Shown: piece by piece, positions 344 through 59,089 of the stretch
How the letters are laid out: every line of letters begins with the position of its first letter
Numbering within the stretch: position 1 is the first letter of the stretch
Sequence record: PQ100635.1
Length of the DNA: 64,000 nucleotides
Origin: Escherichia phage PNJ-9
Reading direction: 5' to 3' (one strand)
The notes under the pieces: generated by a model
What the model saw: the letters and a program-made list of their open reading frames with translations, nothing else
Told to the model about the DNA's origin: nothing
Database searches by the model: none
Translations under genes and position numbers: made by a program

Positions 344-380
344 GTTTACAACTAAGTAGGACTATGATATAGTAGTCCTA
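344..380 (+). promoter_or_regulatory. sigma70-type early promoter with flanking dyad (PeSL-like)
   Basis: GTTTACA at 344-350, 17-bp spacer, TATAGT 368-373; 8-bp inverted repeat taggacta/tagtccta (357-364 / 373-380). Confidence 0.6.
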
Positions 381-399
381 TCTAAAAGAGGATAACATC

Positions 400-663
400 A
401 TGAAATTTAAATTTTTCTACGCAAAACATAAAGTAACAGGCGAATTTGTTTCAATGTACAACACCGCAGATGACGAAGGGATGATTTATACCCATTTGGG
501 TCTATCTCATTGGGACTCAGACGTGCCTTATATGTCATCTGAAGCCGAAATAACTCGTCTGGTTAATGGACATATGAACGACCATTTTGGTGTTATTCTT
601 TCTAAAGACCTTAAAGAGGTTATCAACAAAGGATATATGGAACTCGCGGAAGTTGAGTTATGA
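400..663 (+). CDS. hypothetical protein (87 aa)
   Basis: ORF with GAGGA RBS upstream, preceded by own early promoter; no recognisable domain. Confidence 0.5.
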   Translation: MKFKFFYAKHKVTGEFVSMYNTADDEGMIYTHLGLSHWDSDVPYMSSEAEITRLVNGHMNDHFGVILSKDLKEVINKGYMELAEVEL

Positions 664-852
664 GCTCTAAAATGTGGATCGGAATATGGTTTCTTAGTAT
701 CCCTATGATTTGCATAATATTTTCAATTGCATTGAGGTACTTATGAAAAATGCACTTATTGTACTAAGAACAATTTGTGATACGGGTTTTTACATCGCAT
801 GTTCGTTCACTGGGACATGGTTGGCTTTAACATATTTTAATGTAATTTAATT

Positions 853-890
853 GTTTACATCAAGGTAGGATTATGGTATAGTAGTCCTAT
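853..890 (+). promoter_or_regulatory. sigma70-type early promoter with flanking dyad (PeSL-like)
   Basis: GTTTAC 853-858, TATAGT 877-882; imperfect dyad taggatta/tagtccta. Confidence 0.6.
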
Positions 891-910
891 CAAAACAAGA
901 GGAACACAAA

Positions 911-1111
911 ATGGCTAAGCTTTTTAAAGATGTTGAAATTGGTGAAAAATTTGTCCTGAATAATGGTCAGCAGCTTATTCGTGTAGCTTCTATAGCAGGT
1001 CAAACTCATAACTGCATCGCCCCGACGTGTTGGACTCGATTCTTTATTGAAGATGACACTGAATGTTTAACTGTTGAAGAGCTTTTTGAACGTTCTGATA
1101 TAGCCGAATAA
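911..1111 (+). CDS. hypothetical protein (66 aa)
   Basis: ORF after promoter; AAGAGGA RBS; no recognisable domain. Confidence 0.5.
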   Translation: MAKLFKDVEIGEKFVLNNGQQLIRVASIAGQTHNCIAPTCWTRFFIEDDTECLTVEELFERSDIAE

Positions 1112-1113
1112 AA

Positions 1114-1149
1114 TTGTACAAACTCTTGAGAGCAGAGTATAATGCTCTC
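1114..1149 (+). promoter_or_regulatory. sigma70-type early promoter with flanking dyad
   Basis: TTGTACA 1114-1120, 17-bp spacer, TATAAT 1138-1143; dyad gagagca/tgctctc (1128-1134 / 1143-1149). Confidence 0.6.
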
Positions 1150-3379: not shown

Positions 3380-3400
3380 GGGAGCTTCGGCTCCTTTTTG
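3380..3400 (+). terminator. rho-independent terminator-like hairpin
   Basis: ggagc-ttcg-gctcc hairpin followed by TTTTT. Confidence 0.55.
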
Positions 3401-3421
3401 TGCATTTTTTCTCACAAAATA

Positions 3422-3453
3422 GTTTACACGTGCTTCAAACATGATATTATAGA
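3422..3453 (+). promoter_or_regulatory. sigma70-type early promoter upstream of motA
   Basis: GTTTACA 3422-3428 and TATTATAGA -10 region; same architecture as other early promoters in window. Confidence 0.55.
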
Positions 3454-3489
3454 CCTATCAAAACAAAACAACCAAATTGGAGAAATAAA

Positions 3490-4122
3490 ATGTCTAAAGT
3501 TGCTTACATCATCAAAGCTTCCGAAAACGCTCTGAATGAAAAAACCGCTGCAATAATGGTTTATATCATTAAGAACAACTTCACCACTGCTGCCAATGTC
3601 CGTGAAGCTCTGGAAGCGGAATACAATGCATCGGTTGTTAACTCTAACATTGGTGTATTGATTAAGAAAGGTTTAGTCGAAAAATCTGGTGATGGACTTA
3701 TAGCAACAGGCGAAGCAATGGATATTATCCAAAAAGCTGCAGACCTCTTTGCCCAAGAAAATGCTCCAGAACTTCTTCAGAAACGTAACACTAGAAAAGC
3801 ACGTGGAGTTACTCCCGAAATGCATGAATTAGCAAACTTTGTTTTTGAAAATATTAAAGATAAAGTTGAAGTTAAAGAAATCGGTGAAAACCGTAGTAAC
3901 TTGGAAGTTCGATTTGCAAAACGAGTTCTAGGTATTCGTCAGATCGAAATTCGTCGAGATGGTTGTCTTAGAATATTTGCATACAACATGTCAGAAACTG
4001 AATCAAAGCTGTTTACTTCTCTTGAAAATGATGTTAAGATTAAGATCGGTGGTAAATATACTTACATTGACTTCCCTAATGTGTCCAAAGAAATCATTAC
4101 CCTTGTAACTAACGTACTGTGA
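3490..4122 (+). CDS. motA: middle transcription activator MotA
   Basis: 210 aa; N-terminal MSKV.YIIKAS and NSNIGVLIKKGLVEKSGDGLI match T4 MotA. Confidence 0.9.
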   Translation: MSKVAYIIKASENALNEKTAAIMVYIIKNNFTTAANVREALEAEYNASVVNSNIGVLIKKGLVEKSGDGLIATGEAMDIIQKAADLFAQENAPELLQKRNTRKARGVTPEMHELANFVFENIKDKVEVKEIGENRSNLEVRFAKRVLGIRQIEIRRDGCLRIFAYNMSETESKLFTSLENDVKIKIGGKYTYIDFPNVSKEIITLVTNVL

Positions 4123-4132
4123 GGAATACATA

Positions 4133-4477
4133 ATGAATAAGCTGAATATTATTAACGAACTTCGTAAATGTGCAGAACCTACTCAGGAAGGATGGGATAT
4201 TTGGTACCACGGGGCTTATTTAGGGACAATTGTAAAGATTAAAGCAGGCCAATATATGGTTATTCGCGAAAATTCTGAATTCCATAATGGAGTAGCTCCT
4301 GGCGGTATACGTAAAAACTTTATGGCAGCGATCAGTTCATTTGTTGATGCAGCTTACGAAATCTATAAAGAAGATTATAAAGAATATCAGCAGTCACAAC
4401 CGGTTATTCGTTCGATTGGTGTAAATAAACAAGCACAAAAATCTATTTGGCAACGTATTAAGGAATGGTTTAAATGA
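4133..4477 (+). CDS. hypothetical protein (114 aa)
   Basis: ORF in variable motA-asiA interval; RBS present; no motif recognised. Confidence 0.5.
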
Positions 4478-19799: not shown

Positions 19800-19821
19800 G
19801 GGAGACTTCGGTCTCCCTTTT
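19800..19821 (+). terminator. rho-independent terminator (UUCG tetraloop hairpin)
   Basis: GGGAGAC-UUCG-GUCUCCC followed by UUUU immediately after gene 32. Confidence 0.75.
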
Positions 19822-19849
19822 GAGTATCTGTAAATTGCCAAAAAAAGAT

Positions 19850-19882
19850 GTTTACTTCTTCCCTAGATGTGATATTATAGTT
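19850..19882 (+). promoter_or_regulatory. sigma70-type early promoter
   Basis: GTTTAC 19850-19855, -10 region GATATTATAG. Confidence 0.55.
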
Positions 19883-19907: not shown

Positions 19908-20312
19908 ATGGAAATCGGAAAATCTTATATCATTAACCCTTTGTTTAAAGACGACTTTGTTCAAGAAGCACCACACAATAACGCTAAGATGTTAAAATTG
20001 ATTGAACTCCACGGGCCTAGTTTTGTTGTAAACGGAATGGAACCTGATTATGATGGCGATACGCCAAACGTAGTAAGTGTAACTATGGAAGATGGTACTG
20101 TATGTTCTGCCGGTGGTGAAATTGAAACTTATTTTGAGATTTATCCTGACGAGTTCAAATACTTTATTGAGTACTTTACTGAGGTAACTTTAGAAAAGCC
20201 TCAACCTACTAACGAAGGTATAACTTTAGGTGTAACAAAAATCCATTGTATCGTAGATGAAACCAACGTCGACGAAATCATCAAACTTTTGCAAAAAACT
20301 TTTAAAAAGTAG
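19908..20312 (+). CDS. hypothetical protein (134 aa)
   Basis: ORF with GAGGA RBS; no motif recognised. Confidence 0.5.
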   Translation: MEIGKSYIINPLFKDDFVQEAPHNNAKMLKLIELHGPSFVVNGMEPDYDGDTPNVVSVTMEDGTVCSAGGEIETYFEIYPDEFKYFIEYFTEVTLEKPQPTNEGITLGVTKIHCIVDETNVDEIIKLLQKTFKK

Positions 20313-20350
20313 TGTACAATCAGATAGGGTTATGTTATAGTAGCCCTATC
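20312..20350 (+). promoter_or_regulatory. sigma70-type early promoter with flanking dyad (PeSL-like)
   Basis: GTGTACA -35-like, TATAGT -10; dyad gataggg/ccctatc (20323-20329 / 20344-20350). Confidence 0.55.
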
Positions 20351-20376
20351 AAATCAAAAGTGAAGCGGAGAATAAA

Positions 20377-20625
20377 ATGAGATTGCAACGCCAGAGCATC
20401 AAAGATTCGGAAGTTAGAGGTAAATGGTACTTCAACATCGTCGGTAAAGACGCTGAACTCCTTGAACAAGCTGAAGAAGCTTTACGAGAAATGGGTTGGA
20501 ACGAAGAATGTGATGGATGTCCACTCTACGAAGATGGTGAAAGTGCAGGATTCTGGATTTATCATTCTGACGTCGATCAGTTTAAAGCTGATTGGAAAGT
20601 TGTTAAGAAAAATCTGAGGAAATAA
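20377..20625 (+). CDS. hypothetical protein (82 aa)
   Basis: ORF with GGAGA RBS; no motif recognised. Confidence 0.5.
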   Translation: MRLQRQSIKDSEVRGKWYFNIVGKDAELLEQAEEALREMGWNEECDGCPLYEDGESAGFWIYHSDVDQFKADWKVVKKNLRK

Positions 20626-21456: not shown

Positions 21457-22313
21457 AACAATACCAATACCTGATTAAAGATATCTTAGAAAATGGCTAC
21501 GAAACAGACGACCGTACAGGTACCGGCACTATTGCCCTGTTCGGAACTAAATTGCGATGGGACCTTACTAAAGGATTTCCTGCAGTAACAACCAAGAAGC
21601 TTGCATGGAAAGCTTGTATTGCCGAGCTATTATGGTTCATGTCTGGTTCTACCAATGTTAATGATTTGCGTATTCGTACTCATGGTAGTCTTATTCAAGG
21701 TAAAACTATTTGGGACGACAACTATGAAAATCAGGCAAAAGACCTTGGGTATCATAGCGGCGAACTTGGTCCTATTTATGGTAAGCAATGGCGTGATTTT
21801 GGTGGTGTAGACCAATTAGTTGAAACAATCGACCGTATTAAAAAATTACCAACTGATCGTCGTCAAATTGTTTCTGCCTGGAATCCAGCTGAAATAAATC
21901 AAATGGCTCTTCCTCCTTGCCATATGTTCTATCAGTTCAATGTGCGTAATGGACATCTTGATTTACAATGGTATCAACGCAGTGTAGATGTTTTCTTAGG
22001 CCTGCCATTCAACATTGCCTCGTACGCTGCCTTGACACATATTGTAGCGAAGATGTGTAACCTTATCCCAGGTGATTTAGTGTTCTCAGGCGGCAACACG
22101 CATATCTACAGCAATCATGTAGAACAATGCAAAGAAGTTCTTCGTCGTGAACCTAAAGAGTTGTGTTCTCTTGAAATTAATTGGCCTAGTAATTTTGAGA
22201 ATTGGCCTACAAAAATCCAAATGGACTGGGTTACTGGAACGATGACACATTCTGATTTCGTTCTTAAAAATTACGAATCACATCCAGCTATCAAAGCTAA
22301 AATGGCGGTATAA
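21453..22313 (+). CDS. td: thymidylate synthase (uninterrupted, no intron)
   Basis: 286 aa contiguous ORF; matches T4 Td (MKQYQ.LIKDI.ENGYETDDRTGTGT, PPCHMFYQF, C-terminal KMAV). Confidence 0.92.
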   Translation: MKQYQYLIKDILENGYETDDRTGTGTIALFGTKLRWDLTKGFPAVTTKKLAWKACIAELLWFMSGSTNVNDLRIRTHGSLIQGKTIWDDNYENQAKDLGYHSGELGPIYGKQWRDFGGVDQLVETIDRIKKLPTDRRQIVSAWNPAEINQMALPPCHMFYQFNVRNGHLDLQWYQRSVDVFLGLPFNIASYAALTHIVAKMCNLIPGDLVFSGGNTHIYSNHVEQCKEVLRREPKELCSLEINWPSNFENWPTKIQMDWVTGTMTHSDFVLKNYESHPAIKAKMAV

Positions 22314-22314
22314 A

Positions 22315-22569
22315 ATGATTTTACGTTTTATTAATTCATATGGCACCACAATTTTTGAAATGAAAAATCCTACCGAACTGGATATCCCTTCACCGAATAG
22401 TGAAATCACAGTTAAAGGTGAACGATTCATTTGCTATTCACACGAACGAATTTATGAATATCGTGAATTTTGTGGTGGTTACGGTATAGAAAAAGAACCG
22501 GTGGTTTATTTCGATATCACAGTCTTGACACCTAAAGAATACGAAGAAATTATTGCTGAGGATAATTAA
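22315..22569 (+). CDS. hypothetical protein (84 aa)
   Basis: ORF immediately after td; no motif recognised. Confidence 0.5.
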   Translation: MILRFINSYGTTIFEMKNPTELDIPSPNSEITVKGERFICYSHERIYEYREFCGGYGIEKEPVVYFDITVLTPKEYEEIIAEDN

Positions 22570-22593
22570 CGCTTCAGTTTAAAAGTGTATAAT
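22569..22593 (+). promoter_or_regulatory. putative MotA-dependent middle promoter upstream of nrdA
   Basis: MotA-box-like aacGCTTCA (22569-22576), 11-bp spacer, TATAAT 22588-22593. Confidence 0.45.
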
Positions 22594-22656
22594 AAATTAA
22601 CGGGATAAATACTATCCCGTTTGGAGTAATGTCTATCAACCTATACTGAGGACTAT

Positions 22657-24912
22657 ATGCAAGTAACTAAGAGCAGTGGTGTATCCCAAAATTTTGATGC
22701 ACAGAAAATTATTCAAGTCTTAACTTGGCAATGTGAAGGAACACAAATTGACCCATATGAATTGTACGAAGAAATTAAGACCCATCTTGTTGACGGGATG
22801 AGCACCAAAGATATCCAGAAGATTTGTATTAAAGTTGCAGCTAACTCGATTTCTGTCGAAGAACCTGATTATCAGTATGTCGCCGCCAAAGGGCTAATGT
22901 TTGCACTCCGTAAAGATGTATACGGACAGTTTGAACCGCCTGCTTTTATCGACCATATTTCTTATTGTGTTAATGAAGGCAAATACGACCCTGAGTTGTT
23001 GTCTAGATATTCTGCAGAAGAAATCATTTATCTTGATTCTCAGATTAAACATGAGCGAGATTTTGACCTGACTTATGCTGGTGCTATGCAGCTTAAAGAA
23101 AAATATCTAGTTAAAGATAAAACAACTGGGAAGATTTATGAAACTCCCCAGTTTGCTATCATGGCTATTGGCATGGCCTTACATCAAGACGAAACTCATG
23201 ACCGTTTGAAACATATTATTCGTTTTTATGATGCCGTTTCTACTCATCAAGTTTCATTGCCTACCCCAATTATGGCAGGTGCTCGTACTCCGACTCGCCA
23301 GTTCTCTAGTTGTGTAGTTATTGAAGCAGGTGATTCGTTAAAATCTATTAACAAAACTTCAGCATCAATTATTGAATATATTTCTAAACGAGCTGGTATC
23401 GGTATCAACGTTGGTATGCTTCGTGCAGAAGGTTCTAAGATCGGTATGGGTGAAGTTCGACATACAGGTGTTATTCCATTCTGGAAACATTTCCAAACTG
23501 CAGTAAAATCTTGTTCTCAAGGTGGTATTCGTGGTGGTGCTGCTACAGCGTATTATCCGATGTGGCACTTAGAAGTAGAGAACCTATTAGTTCTGAAAAA
23601 TAACAAAGGCGTGGATGAAAACCGTATTCGACATATGGACTACGGAATTCAGATTAATGACCTTATGATGGAACGCCTTGGTAAAAATGATTATATTACT
23701 TTATTTAGCCCTCACGAAATGTCAGGCGAACTATACTACTCGTTCTTTGAAGATCAAGATAAATTCCGTGAGCTTTATGAGAAAGCTGAAAAAGACCCGA
23801 CAATCAGAAAGAAAAGAATCAAAGCACTAGAACTCTTTGAATTGTTCATGACTGAACGTTCTGGCACTGCTCGAATTTATCCACAATTCGTTGATAACAC
23901 GAATAACTACACTCCGTTTATTCGCGAAAAAGCTCCAATTCGTCAGAGTAACTTATGTTGTGAAATCGCTATTCCAACTAATGATGTGAATGGTCCTGAT
24001 GCTGAAATTGGTTTATGCACATTATCTGCTTTTGTATTAGATAAATTTGATTGGCAAGACCAAGATAAAATTAATGAACTTGCTGAAGTACAAGTACGTG
24101 CACTTGATAACCTGTTAGACTATCAAGATTATCCGGTTCCAGAAGCTTTAAAAGCTAAAAAGCGTCGTAATCTCGGTGTTGGTGTTACGAACTATGCCGC
24201 ATGGTTAGCTTCTAACTTTGCTTCATACGAAGACGCTAACGATTTGACTCATGAATTGTTTGAGAGATTGCAATATGGTCTTATCAAAGCTTCAATCAAG
24301 CTCGCCAAAGAAAAAGGATGTTGTGAGTATTATTCAGACACTAAATGGTCTAGAGGCGAATTACCTATCGACTGGTACAATAAAAAGATTGACCAAATCG
24401 CGGCCCCGAACTACGTCTGTGACTGGGAAGAACTTCGAGCTGAACTCAAAGAACACGGAATTCGTAACTCAACGTTGTCTGCACTCATGCCTTGTGAGTC
24501 AAGCAGTCAAGTATCAAACTCTACAAACGGGATTGAGCCCCCACGCGGTCCAGTAAGTATTAAAGAATCTAAAGAAGGCAACTTCCGTCAGGTTGTTCCT
24601 AATATCGAACATAACATGAGTCTTTACGACTATGCGTGGAAACTTGCTAAGAAAGGTAATAAACCTTATTTGACACAAGTTGCTATCATGTTGAAATGGG
24701 TGTGCCAATCTGCTTCTGCTAATACTTACTATGACCCTGCAGTATTTGAGAAAGGTAAAGTACCAATGTCAGTAATGCTTGACGATCTACTTTACTTCTG
24801 GTACTTTGGCGGAAAAAACCTCTACTATCATAACACTCGTGATGGGTCGGGTACAGATGACTACGAATTAGAAACACCTAAAGCTGAAGATTGTTCTGCT
24901 TGTAAGCTTTAA
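22657..24912 (+). CDS. nrdA: aerobic ribonucleotide reductase large subunit
   Basis: 751 aa; ATP-cone N-terminus, class Ia RNR motifs and C-terminal tail as in T4 NrdA. Confidence 0.92.
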   Translation: MQVTKSSGVSQNFDAQKIIQVLTWQCEGTQIDPYELYEEIKTHLVDGMSTKDIQKICIKVAANSISVEEPDYQYVAAKGLMFALRKDVYGQFEPPAFIDHISYCVNEGKYDPELLSRYSAEEIIYLDSQIKHERDFDLTYAGAMQLKEKYLVKDKTTGKIYETPQFAIMAIGMALHQDETHDRLKHIIRFYDAVSTHQVSLPTPIMAGARTPTRQFSSCVVIEAGDSLKSINKTSASIIEYISKRAGIGINVGMLRAEGSKIGMGEVRHTGVIPFWKHFQTAVKSCSQGGIRGGAATAYYPMWHLEVENLLVLKNNKGVDENRIRHMDYGIQINDLMMERLGKNDYITLFSPHEMSGELYYSFFEDQDKFRELYEKAEKDPTIRKKRIKALELFELFMTERSGTARIYPQFVDNTNNYTPFIREKAPIRQSNLCCEIAIPTNDVNGPDAEIGLCTLSAFVLDKFDWQDQDKINELAEVQVRALDNLLDYQDYPVPEALKAKKRRNLGVGVTNYAAWLASNFASYEDANDLTHELFERLQYGLIKASIKLAKEKGCCEYYSDTKWSRGELPIDWYNKKIDQIAAPNYVCDWEELRAELKEHGIRNSTLSALMPCESSSQVSNSTNGIEPPRGPVSIKESKEGNFRQVVPNIEHNMSLYDYAWKLAKKGNKPYLTQVAIMLKWVCQSASANTYYDPAVFEKGKVPMSVMLDDLLYFWYFGGKNLYYHNTRDGSGTDDYELETPKAEDCSACKL

Positions 24913-26166: not shown

Positions 26167-26577
26167 ATGAAAGATATTGCCGCCGAATATTCCTTTATTA
26201 AATATACAGAATTGGAGCTATTAGAAGATGCAACAATTAAAACAGTTGATGTCCCTAATAAGAAAAATGTCATATACGCTATTGCTATAGATGACGAACT
26301 TGTGTATATTGGTAAAACCAAGAATTTAAAGAAACGCATTAACTATTATCGAACAGCCATAAATCGAAAAGACCAGACTTCAGATTCAAGAAAATCACTT
26401 ATGATTTTGGATGCCTTAATGCAAGGCAAAAAGGTTGAATTCTGGGCCCGCCAATGTTTTGACCTTTCAGTCACCAACGAACTTGGTTCAATGACCATCG
26501 CAACAATGGACCTTGAAGAACCGCTTTTTATCAAAAAGTTCAACCCGCCTTGGAATATCCAACATAAGAAAAAGTAG
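26167..26577 (+). CDS. denA: endonuclease II (GIY-YIG family)
   Basis: 136 aa; near-identical to T4 DenA as recalled (EYSFIKYTELEL, VIYAIAI.DELVYIGKTKNL.KRINYYRTAINRKD, FNPPWNIQHKKK). Confidence 0.9.
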   Translation: MKDIAAEYSFIKYTELELLEDATIKTVDVPNKKNVIYAIAIDDELVYIGKTKNLKKRINYYRTAINRKDQTSDSRKSLMILDALMQGKKVEFWARQCFDLSVTNELGSMTIATMDLEEPLFIKKFNPPWNIQHKKK

Positions 26578-26606
26578 TTTACATGCCACAAGGATTGTGG
26601 TACAAT
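26577..26606 (+). promoter_or_regulatory. sigma70-type early promoter upstream of rnlA
   Basis: GTTTACA 26577-26583, 17-bp spacer, TACAAT 26601-26606. Confidence 0.55.
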
Positions 26607-27757: not shown

Positions 27758-27819
27758 TGGTTTACAAACACCAAGGAAGGTGTTACTATGGTTTTTATCA
27801 ACAACACGAGGAGAAAATT

Positions 27820-28951: not shown

Positions 28952-29166
28952 CTAAAGAACAACATGAATACATTAAAGGGCTTATCTATGAATCTGAAAT
29001 GGCGGCTATGATTTATGGGCGCCAGATTCAACGATTAGAATCTTTGCCTCCGACTAATGACCGCTTGTTAGTTCAGTCTCGTGCTAATCTGAAAAACGAA
29101 TATCAGAATAAGTGGGCAGTAGCGACTAAAGCTCTTCATGAGTATATTGAATCTTTAGTAAAATAG
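28942..29166 (+). CDS. hypothetical protein (74 aa)
   Basis: ORF overlapping o-spanin end; no motif recognised. Confidence 0.45.
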   Translation: MPMTKEQHEYIKGLIYESEMAAMIYGRQIQRLESLPPTNDRLLVQSRANLKNEYQNKWAVATKALHEYIESLVK

Positions 29167-29200
29167 TTTACAAACTCTCGGGAGCAGAGTATAATGCTCC
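29166..29200 (+). promoter_or_regulatory. sigma70-type early promoter with flanking dyad
   Basis: GTTTACA 29166-29172, TATAAT 29190-29195; dyad ggagca/tgctcc; near-identical to promoter at 1114-1149. Confidence 0.6.
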
Positions 29201-29223
29201 TATGGATAATTGAGGAAATCTAA

Positions 29224-29522
29224 ATGAAAACATTACTAGAGAATTACATCAAACGGTCTGATGAGTATATTGATATCTGTCGTGGAATGTCACTCGGCAA
29301 TTATGACAAAGATGCAGCAAAGGCACTAGATGAAGCAGGTAAAGCTCTTCGTAAAGCTGCTAAAGAAAAAGGGTTGGATTTGCAACAACTCAAAAGTCAT
29401 ATGATTAAATTTATTTCTTCAAACGTTAGAAGTACGTCAATTAATAAAAACGTTGCTGAAATTAATAAAGACCGGCGCGAGCATAACATTCGTATTCTTG
29501 AAATTTTCTTAGGAATAAAATA

Positions 29523-29523
<1 letters not shown>
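29224..29523 (+). CDS. hypothetical protein (99 aa)
   Basis: ORF with GAGGA RBS after promoter; no motif recognised. Confidence 0.45.
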
Positions 29524-30639: not shown

Positions 30640-30657
30640 TCTATAGAGGTGATTCTA

Positions 30658-31380
30658 ATGGAAAAATACACTGTGTATAAAACCACGTGTTTGGTTAACA
30701 ACAAAATTTATATAGGGGTTCATAAGACCTTAAAAGAAAATGATTCTTATTTAGGTTCCGGTACAGCTTTTAAAAATGCCGAATCAAAATATGGTAAAGA
30801 TTCTTTTAATAAAGAAATCATAAAAATATTTGAAACTAAACAAGAAGCATATGATTTAGAAGCTGAATTAGTAACTAAAGAATTTATAAAATTGGATACT
30901 AATTATAATTTGAAACCCGGCGGAGAAGGAGGCTGGGATTATATCAATGAAAACCGTATTAATGTTAATTCCAGTCCTGAAACTTCATTAAAAATTTCAG
31001 AAACACAAAAACAGAGATATAAAAACGGTGCCGTGCCATGGATTAAAGGCAAGAAATTACCAGGGCATGGGATTAAATCTAAAGAAAGTCGTCTTAAAAA
31101 TGGTAATTCATTTGAAGGCGAAAATAATCCTATGTACGGTAAAAATGTAAAAGATTTTATGAGCGAAGAAGCTATTATAGAATGGGGTAATAAAATATCC
31201 AAAGCGAATAAAGGTAAGATTCGTTCAGATGAGGCAAAAGAAAACTATTCTAAAGCAGCTAAATCCAGAAAATGGCTTATCCATATTTCAGGTAAGAAAT
31301 CTTCTACAACAGATGAAAACGACCCTAGATTGAGCCATCCTGATTGGCAATTAGGCCGCAAATGGAAAACTAATGAATAA
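30658..31380 (+). CDS. GIY-YIG homing endonuclease (Seg-like, freestanding)
   Basis: 240 aa from ATG 30658 (GGTGA RBS); N-terminal GIY-YIG module (YTVYKTT..NNKIYIGVHKT....DSYLGSG) and basic C-terminal DNA-binding region. Confidence 0.75.
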   Translation: MEKYTVYKTTCLVNNKIYIGVHKTLKENDSYLGSGTAFKNAESKYGKDSFNKEIIKIFETKQEAYDLEAELVTKEFIKLDTNYNLKPGGEGGWDYINENRINVNSSPETSLKISETQKQRYKNGAVPWIKGKKLPGHGIKSKESRLKNGNSFEGENNPMYGKNVKDFMSEEAIIEWGNKISKANKGKIRSDEAKENYSKAAKSRKWLIHISGKKSSTTDENDPRLSHPDWQLGRKWKTNE

Positions 31381-32063: not shown

Positions 32064-32102
32064 GTTTACAACATGGTGGAGTTGTGATACTATAACTCTA
32101 CC
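32064..32102 (+). promoter_or_regulatory. sigma70-type early promoter with flanking dyad (PeSL-like)
   Basis: GTTTACA 32064-32070, TACTAT -10; dyad ggtggagtt/aactctacc (8 of 9 complementary). Confidence 0.55.
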
Positions 32103-32121
32103 AACAAATGAGGAAATAGAA

Positions 32122-32358
32122 ATGCTAAGTGAAAACCCAATTACAGTACACGAATTTCAGATTAAAGTAAAAGAATTTGCTCAAGCACTCATCAATAAAG
32201 TGTCTGAACGTTTCAAAGATGCAACATTACGAGTTATTCAAGAATCTCCACGTTCTTTTCTCATAATCGTTAATCCTAAAGATGGTGACCAAATTACTAA
32301 TCTTAAATTAGGCAGTGATGGTCTTGTTGAAGCAACTCGAGTATATGGAACACTATAA
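32122..32358 (+). CDS. hypothetical protein (78 aa)
   Basis: ORF with GAGGA RBS after promoter. Confidence 0.45.
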   Translation: MLSENPITVHEFQIKVKEFAQALINKVSERFKDATLRVIQESPRSFLIIVNPKDGDQITNLKLGSDGLVEATRVYGTL

Positions 32359-32478: not shown

Positions 32479-33471
32479 ATGTTACCTGTCGTCAGAAAAC
32501 TTATTTCTCCAAAAGAACTGGCTGAGATTATTCCTTTGTCGGAAGCTTACGCATCACAAGTGGCTTCTCATCGCGAACAAGTTAATTCGATTATGAACGG
32601 TGAAGACCCACGCAAACTTATTGTTGTAGGTCCTTGTTCAATTCATGACCCTATTGCTGCTGTTGAATACGGCAAACGTCTGGCTGAACTTCAAACTCGT
32701 CTTCCTAATGTTCTGTTAGTGATGCGCGTTTATTTTGAAAAGCCTCGAACTACCGTAGGTTGGAAAGGTCTTGTAAATGATCCATATCTTGACGGAAGTT
32801 TTGATATGAACCACGGTCTTATAGTTGCACGAACATTGTGTCGTAAACTTCTACGTATGGGACTTCCATTAGCAACTGAAGTATTAGACCCATTCACGAT
32901 TAAGTATCTTTCTGGTATTTTCTCATGGGTTGCTATTGGCGCCCGTACGACTGAAAGTCAGACACATCGTGAAATTGCTTCAGGTCTACCGATGTGCGTA
33001 GGCTTCAAGAACGCAACCAATGGTTCTATTAAAGTAGCTACAGACGCGATGTATAGTGCCGCCTGGCCTCATCGGTATATGGGTATGGACGTCGATGGTA
33101 CTGTAGGCATTGTTGAAGCTGAAGGTAATCAGAATACGCATATCGTATTGCGTGGCGGGACTAACGGCCCGAACTATCATTCTTCTGATATTCAAGAAGC
33201 TTCTAACAAAGCAAGTGCATTAGGTCTGAATCATTATGTAATGGTTGACTGTAGCCATGCAAACGCTGATGGGTATTATAGCAATCAAATTGGTATTGGT
33301 AAAAATTTAGCAGCTAATGATTTGGTCAAAGGAATTATGATAGAATCATTCCTACATGAAGGAAATCAAAAAATTTCTGATAATATGTCCTATGGCGTTT
33401 CCGTTACCGATGCGTGCATCGGTTGGGAACAAACTAAAGAGCTGTTAACTTATATTAATAAGGTTCAATAA
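32479..33471 (+). CDS. 3-deoxy-D-arabino-heptulosonate 7-phosphate (DAHP) synthase, AroG/F/H class I-alpha type
   Basis: 330 aa; motifs recalled from E. coli AroG: GPCSIHD, RVYFEKPRTTVGWKGL.NDP, WVAIGARTTESQ.HRE.ASGL, RGG..PNY, D.SHAN, ESFLHEGNQ, TDACIGW. Confidence 0.85.
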   Translation: MLPVVRKLISPKELAEIIPLSEAYASQVASHREQVNSIMNGEDPRKLIVVGPCSIHDPIAAVEYGKRLAELQTRLPNVLLVMRVYFEKPRTTVGWKGLVNDPYLDGSFDMNHGLIVARTLCRKLLRMGLPLATEVLDPFTIKYLSGIFSWVAIGARTTESQTHREIASGLPMCVGFKNATNGSIKVATDAMYSAAWPHRYMGMDVDGTVGIVEAEGNQNTHIVLRGGTNGPNYHSSDIQEASNKASALGLNHYVMVDCSHANADGYYSNQIGIGKNLAANDLVKGIMIESFLHEGNQKISDNMSYGVSVTDACIGWEQTKELLTYINKVQ

Positions 33472-35562: not shown

Positions 35563-35567
35563 ATTTA

Positions 35568-35589
35568 GGGAGACTTCGGTCTCCCTTTT
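35568..35589 (+). terminator. rho-independent terminator (UUCG tetraloop hairpin)
   Basis: GGGAGAC-UUCG-GUCUCCC + UUUU; identical hairpin to the gene 32 terminator. Confidence 0.75.
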
Positions 35590-35622
35590 GTGCGTTTAGG
35601 GCAGAAAAAGTTTAAAAAAGAT

Positions 35623-35654
35623 GTTTACTCTCCTGTAGGATGTGTTACTATAGA
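35623..35654 (+). promoter_or_regulatory. sigma70-type early promoter
   Basis: GTTTAC 35623-35628, TACTATAG -10 region. Confidence 0.55.
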
Positions 35655-36066: not shown

Positions 36067-36106
36067 GTTTACTTTGGTACAGGTTATGTTATTATAGACC
36101 TGTACC
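36067..36106 (+). promoter_or_regulatory. sigma70-type early promoter with flanking dyad (PeSL-like)
   Basis: GTTTAC 36067-36072, TATTATAGA -10; perfect 8-bp dyad ggtacagg/cctgtacc (36076-36083 / 36099-36106). Confidence 0.6.
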
Positions 36107-36136
36107 AACAAACAACTTAAACATCTGGAGAATAAA

Positions 36137-36502
36137 ATGAACTACACCAACTTCGAACGCAAATATGTTTCTAACGGTATCGCTGGTTCTATCGATATGG
36201 TTTGTTTGTGGAAGCATAAAAATGGTTCAGTATGCGAAATTGAGCAGTATATGACTCCTAATTACGTTTATATGCGATTTGAAAATGGCATCACGGTTTC
36301 AATCACGATGGAAGGTTCCAACTTCAAAATTGCATTAGATGACGATTTCCGTCAACGTGATTTAGGTACTCATCCTTGCTGGAACGGTGTTAATCGTAAA
36401 CTTCTGGTTAAAACTTGGATTCGTCATATCCTGAGTAACCGAGCTAAACCTGAACATCTCGAAGCAATCTTTGATGTAATTCTTAACGAATTTGATATCT
36501 AA
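36137..36502 (+). CDS. hypothetical protein (121 aa)
   Basis: ORF with GGAGA RBS; no motif recognised. Confidence 0.5.
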   Translation: MNYTNFERKYVSNGIAGSIDMVCLWKHKNGSVCEIEQYMTPNYVYMRFENGITVSITMEGSNFKIALDDDFRQRDLGTHPCWNGVNRKLLVKTWIRHILSNRAKPEHLEAIFDVILNEFDI

Positions 36503-36537: not shown

Positions 36538-37152
36538 ATGTTTAAAGTTAATACTTTTTATAAAATGAATTTTAAAAATGGGGATATTACTCCACGCCTT
36601 AAAAACATGTTCTCATATGACCTTATCGAGCCTTTTGAAGTTTTAGAAGTTACTGATGCCGGCTCGGTTTGTGAAATTAGAACTTCTGAAGGTAAAATTT
36701 ATCAGGCAGGTGTTGGTAAATTCAGTAATTGTTTTACTTTAATATTCTCGACTGATTTAGATGAGCATTTTATTGAATGTCATAACCATAAGGTCCATGA
36801 AGTTCCACAACAAGAAACTAAGAAAAATGGTCCGCACGAATATACCAAGGTTGAAACTCCTCACGGTGTGATGTGGCGTCATAACTCTCCTTTTGGAAGT
36901 AAAGGAACATTTGCTCAACTGCCTAAACCGTATGACGATGAAAAATACATCGTCGCCTTTTTATCTGAACAGGGTACTCAAGACCGTGGATGCCAAAGAA
37001 GTGGTTTACTAAGTGAACTTGAAGCTCATAACCAAGCACGTGAATTCGTTGAGAAAAATCCTGGTTCTGAAGCTCTAGTCATGAAAGCAATTACTCAATA
37101 TATCACTGCTCAACCTGTTGTTCATCCGGTAGAAATTAATTTCATTAAGTAG
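36538..37152 (+). CDS. hypothetical protein (204 aa)
   Basis: ORF with GAGGA RBS; no motif recognised. Confidence 0.5.
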   Translation: MFKVNTFYKMNFKNGDITPRLKNMFSYDLIEPFEVLEVTDAGSVCEIRTSEGKIYQAGVGKFSNCFTLIFSTDLDEHFIECHNHKVHEVPQQETKKNGPHEYTKVETPHGVMWRHNSPFGSKGTFAQLPKPYDDEKYIVAFLSEQGTQDRGCQRSGLLSELEAHNQAREFVEKNPGSEALVMKAITQYITAQPVVHPVEINFIK

Positions 37153-37182
37153 TTTACATCCAAGGACGGATTAGAGTATAAT
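37152..37182 (+). promoter_or_regulatory. sigma70-type early promoter
   Basis: GTTTACA 37152-37158, TATAAT 37177-37182. Confidence 0.55.
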
Positions 37183-37206
37183 GATTTCTTTAGTAAGTGG
37201 AAAAAT

Positions 37207-37404
37207 ATGAAATTTTTAATAGCACAAACAGTCCAATTAAAAGGTGTTGGAATTCCTGGGGTGATTTTTAAAGTTCTCCCTGAATTTAAAACCGCCGCTG
37301 GAATTATCAATGAAGCGTATGCTGTTCAATGGGTTGATTGGACTTCTGACATACGTATGGGTAAAGAGTTATCTCCTATTAAAGGGTTGAAACATGTTGA
37401 ATAA
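37207..37404 (+). CDS. hypothetical protein (65 aa)
   Basis: First ORF of a translationally coupled series ending in DNA ligase. Confidence 0.45.
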   Translation: MKFLIAQTVQLKGVGIPGVIFKVLPEFKTAAGIINEAYAVQWVDWTSDIRMGKELSPIKGLKHVE

Positions 37405-42975: not shown

Positions 42976-43004
42976 TTTACAAACACATGGATGTGTGATA
43001 CTAT
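42975..43004 (+). promoter_or_regulatory. sigma70-type early promoter
   Basis: GTTTACA 42975-42981, 17-bp spacer, TACTAT 42999-43004; imperfect dyad atggatg/catcccat. Confidence 0.5.
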
Positions 43005-43033
43005 CATCCCATCAACAACATGAGGAAAACGTT

Positions 43034-43327: not shown

Positions 43328-43336
43328 ACCCCTAAA

Positions 43337-43358
43337 GGGAGACGTTGTCTCCCTTTTT
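43337..43358. terminator. terminator hairpin between convergent genes
   Basis: GGGAGAC-GUUG-UCUCCC followed by UUUUU on + strand; lies between + ORF end (43327) and gene 54 end (43360). Confidence 0.6.
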
Positions 43359-58043: not shown

Positions 58044-58076
58044 GTTTACACACAAAAAGCGTTGTGTTACTATAGA
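58044..58076 (+). promoter_or_regulatory. sigma70-type early promoter
   Basis: GTTTACA 58044-58050, TACTATAGA -10 region. Confidence 0.55.
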
Positions 58077-59032: not shown

Positions 59033-59042
59033 AAACAAGAAT

Positions 59043-59060
59043 GGGAGACCGAAGTCTCCC
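59043..59060 (-). terminator. UUCG-tetraloop hairpin after gene 23 (also 3' of the + strand HEG)
   Basis: On - strand reads GGGAGAC-UUCG-GUCUCCC, identical to hairpins at 19800 and 35568; downstream U-run is weak. Confidence 0.5.
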
Positions 59061-59089
59061 ATAAGGTTATGTATTTTAACGTTAAAGCA

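Follow-up and report, generated by a model that had tools for sequence, protein, structure and literature searches.

Early promoters that carry an inverted repeat (dyad) around the −10 hexamer were analysed in a 64,000-nucleotide (nt) stretch of Escherichia phage PNJ-9 DNA (record PQ100635.1), the whole of which is referred to below as the window. The first 6 kb of the window are 97–98% identical to the genomes of Mosigvirus (RB69/HX01-like) coliphages. As read from annotated relatives, the genes on the + strand are denB, small open reading frames (ORFs) of the ndd region, ndd, ac, 52, motA, ORFs of the arn region and asiA; holin and tail-fibre genes then follow on the − strand, and rnh through alt again on the + strand. 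On the basis of this gene order, the + strand was taken as the early-gene strand.

Early promoters and their hairpins

A preliminary description of this DNA had given the early promoters the form GTTTAC...TATAAT, for which an exact search of the window returned only two matches. The exact search was replaced by a two-block score using the −35 and −10 hexamers alone, so that the arms of the dyads could not bias the promoter list. A degenerate T4-type −10 (TAnnAT/TACTAT) was needed to obtain approximately 18 strong predicted promoters on the + strand, of the type GTTTAC-N17/18-TAnnAT, which match the RB69 early-promoter consensus (PMC1524935) and have 70–95% A+T in the 20 nt upstream of the promoter. 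P1114 (−35 TTGTAC) was taken into the list from the preliminary description and not from the scan, and P55187, which is probably not a real promoter (it lies within an ORF and has no Shine–Dalgarno sequence, SD), was retained in the statistics as a guard against cherry-picking. A generic promoter and terminator scan of the window was uninformative in this AT-rich genome, giving counts near those of shuffles.

Seven of the approximately 18 promoters carry a dyad of 7–15 bp around the −10 hexamer. They are listed here with the free energies and z scores of their RNA folds.

344–381, + strand: P344, upstream of an RB69ORF270c-like ORF (400–663); −35 GTTTAC at 344–349, −10 TATAGT at 368–373; hairpin TAGGACTA/TAGTCCTA at 357–364/373–380 (356–381 with a terminal G·U); predicted start A380; −13.2 kcal/mol, z −3.3
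853–891, + strand: P853, upstream of ndd.1 (911–1111); −35 at 853–858, −10 TATAGT at 877–882; hairpin 864–874/881–891, 11 bp including G·U; −13.7 kcal/mol (864–891), z −5.7
1114–1150, + strand: P1114, upstream of ndd (1188–1634); −35 TTGTAC at 1114–1119, −10 TATAAT at 1138–1143; hairpin TGAGAGCA/TGCTCTCA at 1127–1134/1143–1150; −13.9 kcal/mol, z −3.7
20312–20350, + strand: P20312, upstream of frd.1 (20377–20625, DUF5417); −35 GTGTAC, −10 TATAGT at 20336–20341; hairpin GATAGGGTTA/TAGCCCTATC at 20323–20332/20341–20350; −16.3 kcal/mol, z −6.4
29166–29201, + strand: P29166, upstream of an RB69ORF231c-like ORF (29224–29523); −10 TATAAT at 29190–29195; hairpin 29180–29186/29195–29201 (GGAGCA/TGCTCC at 29181–29186/29195–29200); −12.2 kcal/mol, z −3.1
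32064–32103, + strand: P32064, upstream of cd.2 (32122–32358, DUF7320); −10 TACTAT at 32088–32093; hairpin 32074–32086/32091–32103; −16.9 kcal/mol, z −5.9
36067–36108, + strand: P36067, upstream of 30.7 (36137–36502, PF06919); −10 TATTAT at 36090–36095; hairpin TTGGTACAGGT/ACCTGTACCAA at 36074–36084/36098–36108; −17.9 kcal/mol, z −5.2

RNA folds of the seven thus range from −12 to −18 kcal/mol (z −3.1 to −6.4), and those of the other promoters lie around z = 0, with two intermediate. With the −10 element in the loop, the arms span about −13 to −4 (left) and about +5 to +14 (right), numbered from the first base of the hexamer as 0. Six of the seven have the same register, in which paired coordinates sum to 1; in P36067, with its 17-nt spacer, they sum to 2, a shift of one base. 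Transcription was predicted to start 12 bases past the first base of the hexamer, on an A at 380 (P344), 20348 (P20312), 32100 (P32064) and 36102 (P36067). Relative to this start, the left arm is the spacer at about −23 to −16, and the right arm is the discriminator and start region at about −7 to +1, extending up to +7. Applied to the T4 cd.2 promoter, the same rule leads to base 133295, in agreement with the name Pe133295 in the T4 record, and the placement also fits the C at −3 to −1 of the published RB69 early-promoter logo (PMC1524935). At the hairpin promoters, the −35 is placed 2–14 nt past the upstream stop codon, and an SD and ATG follow within approximately 60 nt downstream. Tandem promoter–ORF–promoter series are found at denB–ndd, frd.2–frd.1 and 30.8–30.7–30.5.

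The preliminary description had counted at least eight dyad promoters, five perfect and three imperfect. A repeat search recovered the five perfect dyads where they had been placed, and two of the imperfect ones (866–890 and 32075–32102) were as good as the perfect ones with G·U pairs counted (z −5.7 and −5.9). The third, at 42987–43011, is not above chance (RNA fold z +0.2), leaving seven. The dyads had also been said to precede exactly the small, novel and non-core ORFs, a claim that the genes themselves do not bear out: ndd.1, ndd, frd.1, cd.2 and 30.7 are conserved in T4 (30.7 across many genera), and the other two are Mosigvirus ORFs. Every ORF behind a hairpin promoter has a PHROG family, and three have a Pfam family; for the ten proteins tested in all, these numbers were ten and five.

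Excess, covariation and strand asymmetry of the stems

At least seven Watson–Crick base pairs in register were found at 4 of 18 promoters, against 0.45 expected with arms swapped between promoters (P = 3.5e-4) and 0.06 expected in shuffles. The same dyad is present at 0.7% of 3082 other TAnnnT sites of the window and at 22% of the promoters (binomial P = 6e-6). Without P1114 the count becomes 3 of 17, which is still highly significant. Strong simple hairpins are enriched at least 10-fold in promoter cores, which make up 1% of the window. In the comparison with shuffles and non-promoter sites that the preliminary description had proposed as its own check, the dyads therefore stand well above chance.

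Covariation of the arms was examined in a gap-free alignment of 12 dyad promoters, comprising six from the window and orthologues from HX01, ESh15, Shf125875, an IMG/VR contig and T4. Searching IMG/VR with the ORF270c protein had given just three near-identical loci, of no use for this purpose, and GenBank phage records were used instead. In the alignment, 93% of cells are paired and both sides have changed in 8 of 10 pairs, a level reached by 0 of 500 shuffles; sliding the partner by 1–3 columns lowered pairing to 32–56%. The 12 promoters were selected for dyads, and it is the arm-swap test across 18 promoters that provides unbiased evidence. These results agree with the earlier picture of sigma70-type early promoters with the −10 in the loop of a dyad and with covarying arms.

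P1114 and P29166 had been singled out as nearly identical promoters in which both arms had changed in concert. They differ at 4 of 39 aligned bases, all within the arms, but the concerted change extends to one pair (A:T to G:C, compensatory); of the others, one G:C became G:T and one terminal pair was lost. Among orthologues, the outer pairs of P853 covary (G:C, A:T, G:T), and a G:T pair of P29166 in the window is A:T in Shf125875 and EP32a. The only clear stem disruption among the orthologues examined was in the HX01 counterpart of P344 (HX01 stretch 844–880), where an A-to-T change in the left arm (TAGGTCTA) breaks one pair and is uncompensated.

Comparison across genera gave stronger evidence than the alignment, above all at the 30.7 and frd.1 promoters. 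At 30.7, the stem of the window is kept in Mosigvirus, Gaprivervirus and Dhakavirus, and T4 retains an 8-bp core (GGTACAGG/CCTGTACC). Hairpins with unrelated stems (z −4.2 to −5.4) occupy the same promoter in Kagamiyamavirus EcS1 (CTGATTGAGTGT/ACACTCAATCAG), Marfavirus R3_1 and Klebsiella phage Roth76. At frd.1, the window, ESh15, T4 and EcS1 each keep a hairpin, and its stem is different in all four. The stem of the cd.2 promoter is also present in T4, where its G·U pairs fall elsewhere, and in the homologous 49 kb of the T4 genome strong hairpins occur at exactly the three orthologous promoters (frd.1, cd.2 and 30.7). Selection on a structure rather than on a fixed protein site, as the preliminary description had put forward, is the best reading of the covariation in these sequences, and it is strengthened because orthologous promoters in other genera have different stems.

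The mispairs within the stems point in one direction. All internal ones are G·T on the sense (+) strand, which corresponds to A·C on the other strand. In 19 of 19 hairpins, the sense RNA was more stable than the antisense RNA, by a mean of 4.7 kcal/mol, and the sense folds contain 41 G·U pairs compared with 7 in the antisense folds; some of the inner G·U pairs stem from the conserved TG-n-TATAGT motif, so that not all are independent. This asymmetry argues against a cruciform and for a single-stranded form of the sense strand, and it points to selection on a sense-strand RNA structure.

Read-through RNA and a possible insulator role

Because the predicted start is preceded by the whole left arm and almost the entire right arm, the hairpin should be formed only by RNA reading through from upstream, and the mRNA of the promoter itself should be unable to form it. 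The distribution of the hairpins was compared with that of canonical terminators, which lie 20–45 nt upstream of three promoters.

3380–3450, + strand: terminator GGAGC-TTCG-GCTCC with T-run (3380–3399), then P3422 (motA); no −10 dyad, z +0.2
19800–19878, + strand: terminator GGGAGAC-TTCG-GTCTCCC with TTTT (19800–19821) after gene 32, then P19850 (frd.2); no dyad, z +0.4
35567–35651, + strand: terminator AGGGAGAC-TTCG-GTCTCCCT with TTTG (35567–35590), then P35623 (30.8); no significant −10 dyad, z +0.3

None of the five promoters with such an upstream terminator (P3422, P19850 and P35623) or at a divergent junction (P16546 and P58044) has the hairpin, compared with 7 of the 12 remaining promoters (Fisher P = 0.04), and the arrangement in T4 is alike. 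Promoters of the same class that are without dyads drive motA, asiA, rnh, rnlA and alc. The absence of the hairpin from terminator-preceded and divergent promoters suggests an insulator role. At a distance of only 2–14 nt from the preceding stop codon, the hairpin promoters leave no room for a separate terminator.

A different structure is present at the 30.7 promoter of Karamvirus RZH and Gelderlandvirus Melville (stretches 578–653), where a long hairpin between the spacer and the SD replaces the local one (−23 and −21 kcal/mol, z −6.4 and −5.2) and the promoter's own transcript is unstructured. This replacement suggests that different structures serve the same end, namely uncoupling from read-through. 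In the window, P35623 has a weak SD-masking version: TCTCC in its spacer is complementary to the SD GGAGA, and in read-through RNA, where the two can pair, the probability that the SD is unpaired is 0.01, versus 0.81 in the promoter's own transcript, with a minimum free energy that is not significant.

Taken together, we consider it probable that the dyad promoters are composite elements of a Mosigvirus, of the promoter early stem-loop (PeSL) type, in which the read-through hairpin acts as an insulator. They would be strong sigma70 early promoters set 2–14 nt past the stop codon of the preceding gene. The spacer and the discriminator/start region are the hairpin arms, and their complementarity is maintained by selection on the sense strand. 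Transcription would start at the 3' end of the downstream arm. The hairpin could then insulate the unit against read-through transcripts, either as an attenuator or pause site or as a barrier to 3' decay or a processing boundary. Where genes lie too close together to fit a terminator between them, control of each small early gene would in this way rest with its own promoter. Similar cassettes would occasionally recombine by homology, as at the motA.1 indel, but as a side effect and not as the main role.

Several observations weigh against the insulator role. No U-tract follows any of the seven hairpins, the tails being A/C-rich (CTAAAAGA, CAAAACAA or ATGGAT), and the generic terminator scan called none of the seven on the + strand; without a U-tract, efficient intrinsic termination is not expected from the sequence, and with no U-run the reading of the hairpins as intrinsic terminators was rejected. 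Masking of the SD by the seven hairpins was likewise rejected, as the probability that the SD is unpaired is 0.52–0.96 in read-through RNA versus 0.54–0.92 in the promoter's own transcript. Five co-directional promoters (P5935, P26577, P27760, P37152 and P42975) lack both a strong hairpin and a terminator. The Fisher test for the mutual exclusion of terminators and hairpins is marginal, and the number of independent evolutionary events is small, several of the promoters being paralogues or orthologues. T4 transcript 3'-end maps were sought in the literature, and none was usable. In favour of the role, terminator-like activity has been published for one RB49 stem-loop (PMC2839356).

The insulator reading can be set against known systems. 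PeSLs were published in 2010 (Arbiol et al., PMC2839356) for RB49 and phi1 and extended in 2014 to T4/PST and KVP40/nt-1 (Comeau et al., PMC4122927). The analogy drawn in the preliminary description is apt. With the RB49/phi1 PeSLs, the elements of the window have in common an AT-rich upstream region, a sigma70-type early promoter, a stem-loop mostly between the −35 and −10 or overlapping the −10, G–T pairs in the stem, an SD and start codon at the 3' end, a position directly past the upstream stop codon and occurrence in tandem series in plastic early regions (PMC2839356). They differ in that the RB49 stems are polyG/polyC and those of the window are of mixed sequence, 7–15 bp long and centred on the −10 in one nearly constant register; for the −35, the window has GTTTAC and the RB49/phi1 PeSLs have TTGACA; and the window copies are much less alike (56–72% identity), with one of eight indels mediated by a cassette. 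The T4/PST and KVP40/nt-1 PeSLs share the subfamily, the consensus TTTACW-N17-TAYWAT, a variable stem of the AGNA-loop-TCNT type and the denB–ndd region (PMC4122927). The T4/PST stem-loops are placed just upstream of the promoter in a figure legend of that paper, whereas the stem brackets the −10 in the window and in the three T4 promoters examined.

In the T4 hairpins that mask e, soc, 49 and I-TevI (PMC3014915), the promoter also lies in the 5' arm and only read-through transcripts fold, but those promoters are late ones and the hairpins sequester the SD or AUG; the seven of the window reach only to the start site and do not involve the SD. True masking of the SD in combination with early promoters was found outside the window only, at four T4 promoters and at 30.7 of Karamvirus and Gelderlandvirus. 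At the four T4 early promoters (ndd.4, alc, alt.-3 and 30.8, on the reverse strand of T4), the spacer is complementary to the SD of the gene under their control (−15 to −24 kcal/mol, z −3.7 to −4.9). Read-through RNA pairs this SD completely, and the transcript started at the promoter itself leaves it largely unpaired (probability unpaired 0.5–0.99), which is the logic of gene e, soc, 49 and I-TevI with early promoters. Rho-independent terminators share with the hairpins of the window a stable stem directly past a stop codon and between transcription units. The window hairpins differ in having no U-tract and being moderately GC-rich, and the canonical terminators sit at promoters without an embedded hairpin.

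A wider proposal, which we advance only tentatively, is that nearly every early promoter of the Tevenvirinae that is read through co-directionally carries one of three interchangeable insulators: a terminator, a −10 hairpin or a spacer–SD hairpin. A 5' arm embedded in the promoter may then be a general design that ties each small early gene to its own promoter, and the form that brackets the −10 may be an uncharacterised, U-tract-independent attenuator or decay boundary. The interchange at 30.7 and the four SD-masking early promoters of T4 may be first hints of such a scheme.

The result as such is incremental, consisting of a real feature of a published class and a modest shift in its likely function. 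It extends the PeSL idea to RB69-type phages. The PeSL papers (PMC2839356 and PMC4122927) mention neither RB69-type phages nor covariation nor strand asymmetry, and the RB69 early-promoter paper (PMC1524935) does not mention dyads. Added here are the compensatory stem changes, the sense-strand signature, an architecture conserved across genera with unrelated stems, and the complementary distribution with terminators. The emphasis moves from a mobile cassette to an insulator of transcription units in very tight intergenic space, which, if true, would be relevant to the dosing of dozens of small and often toxic early genes by T4-type phages, and to the design of synthetic phage operons.

Gene shuffling, rival readings and other hairpins

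The published PeSL model (PMC2839356 and PMC4122927), also mentioned in the preliminary description, regards the promoter/stem-loop units mainly as portable homology, including for encapsidated mini-circles formed between neighbouring cassettes, that shuffles the small ORFs they flank, with the hairpin as part of the recombination function. The tandem series noted above are in keeping with it, as are the boundaries of nucleotide homology between the window and T4, which is lost just past the −35 hexamer of P344 and begins again precisely with that of P36067; breaks of homology in intergenic DNA are expected anyway. For a direct comparison, the window was set against four Mosigvirus relatives (HX01, ESh15, Shf125875 and EP32a), among which eight early-region differences were found. 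An 84-bp cassette repeat marks the junction of one, two adjoin or contain a promoter, and five are without promoter involvement.

The first of these is a clean cassette-mediated event. All four relatives have an extra 71-amino acid (aa) ORF between gene 52 and motA, at the motA.1 position, flanked by two near-identical copies of a P3422-type cassette (promoter, SD and ATG, terminator-less; HX01 stretch 3880–4320). The window has no such ORF and a single copy of the P3422 cassette (3380–3500), with the 84-bp repeat at the junction; P3422, however, is without a −10 dyad. The other differences are as follows.

30649–31380, + strand: GIY-YIG/NUMOD3 homing-endonuclease gene (seg-like, 243 aa) between pseT and cd.4, an insertion of approximately 770 bp; present in the window, absent from ESh15, Shf125875 and EP32a
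19908–20376 (ESh15 stretch 21900–22810): tandem frd.2 duplication in ESh15, where an inserted hydrophobic mini-ORF of 22 codons also separates frd.1 from its promoter
about 36538–37404: module replacement (36544–37394 against the relatives), with a 204-aa ORF (phrog_17531, no Pfam match) and P37152 in place of gene 30.6 (Shf125875 and T4); bounded by the end of 30.7 and by the start of 30.4 (37394) relative to Shf125875, with homology to T4 back at the start of 30.5 (37207)
elsewhere: segH in Shf125875 and three promoter-less junctions

The dyads thus took no part in the one cassette-mediated indel among eight, and the rest comprise the GIY-YIG gene, segH, the frd.2 duplication and promoter-less junctions. 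Identity between cassettes is also low: for 17 cassettes of the window, pairwise values have a median of 56% and reach 72% at most, and no exact match exceeds 18 nt, so that they fall short of the approximately 100 bp of PeSL-like conservation and would be poor recombination substrates; the near-identical P3422-type copies in HX01 and the three other relatives are the exception. Variable arms lower homology further, the opposite of what a recombination site needs, and frd.1, cd.2 and 30.7 behind their hairpin promoters are stably syntenic from T4 to Mosigvirus. Mobility as the main role of the dyads is therefore unlikely, with one event in its favour.

A DNA-level element is still less probable. 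The dyad could be extruded from supercoiled or melted DNA as a cruciform or hairpin that tunes promoter strength, open complex formation or shut-off, or it could be the site of a dimeric protein. Its nearly fixed register centred on the −10 does look promoter-mechanistic, and the mechanism of T4 early-promoter shut-off has been described as not fully understood (PMC3014915). A cruciform, however, needs both strands to pair, yet the mispairs are G·T on the sense and A·C on the antisense strand and the antisense folds are weaker by 4.7 kcal/mol; arms that are wholly different between promoters and genera exclude a sequence-specific dimeric site. The dyad is present in just 7 of approximately 18 promoters of the same class, and at the 30.7 locus of two genera the structure reaches over a long range to the SD, which is sensible only in RNA.

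The dyads might, finally, have no function and be a by-product of the promoter consensus (a TAGG-type spacer and a CCTATC start region) or of template-switch mutation at quasi-palindromes, by which one arm is copied onto the other. Mutation of this templated kind is well known from T4 genetics. The conserved start-region consensus AGnCCTATCAA, which the downstream arm overlaps, also occurs in promoters without a left arm (P3422, P19850 and P58044), and some arm-swapped pairs between promoters also pair well. This is improbable, as self pairs beat arm-swapped pairs (P = 3.5e-4), some stems are unrelated to the consensus (GAGAGCA at P1114 and CTGATTGAGTGT in EcS1), orthologous promoters of different genera retain hairpins even though the intergenic sequence around them has diverged, and neither the sense-strand G·U bias nor the complementary distribution with terminators is predicted by a neutral process.

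Other hairpins of the window include a weaker second class within promoter spacers.

26577–26606, + strand: hairpin CCACAA-GGA-TTGTGG (26583–26602) within the spacer of P26577 (rnlA); z −2.7
27767–27784: spacer hairpin of the ACAC../..GTGT type at P27760 (alc); z −1.5
42983–42996: spacer hairpin of the same type at P42975; z +0.2
58050–58067: spacer hairpin of the same type at P58044; z −1.0

In this class, the extended −10 region, rich in GT (TGTGG, GGTGT or TTGTGT), serves as the 3' arm, and the 5' arm is rich in ACAC/CCAC; the arms vary yet pair, and P26577 alone nears significance. The terminator hairpin GGGAGAC-TTCG-GTCTCCC recurs at 19800–19817, 35567–35586 and 59041–59062, and also at 43334–43356, with one copy inverted and a related hairpin at 3380–3394; such repeated terminator modules could also serve as short homologies. 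Between cd.2 and cd lies a gene for an AroG-like phospho-2-dehydro-3-deoxyheptonate aldolase (330 aa, 32479–33471), common to other Mosigvirus genomes and EcS1 and absent from T4.

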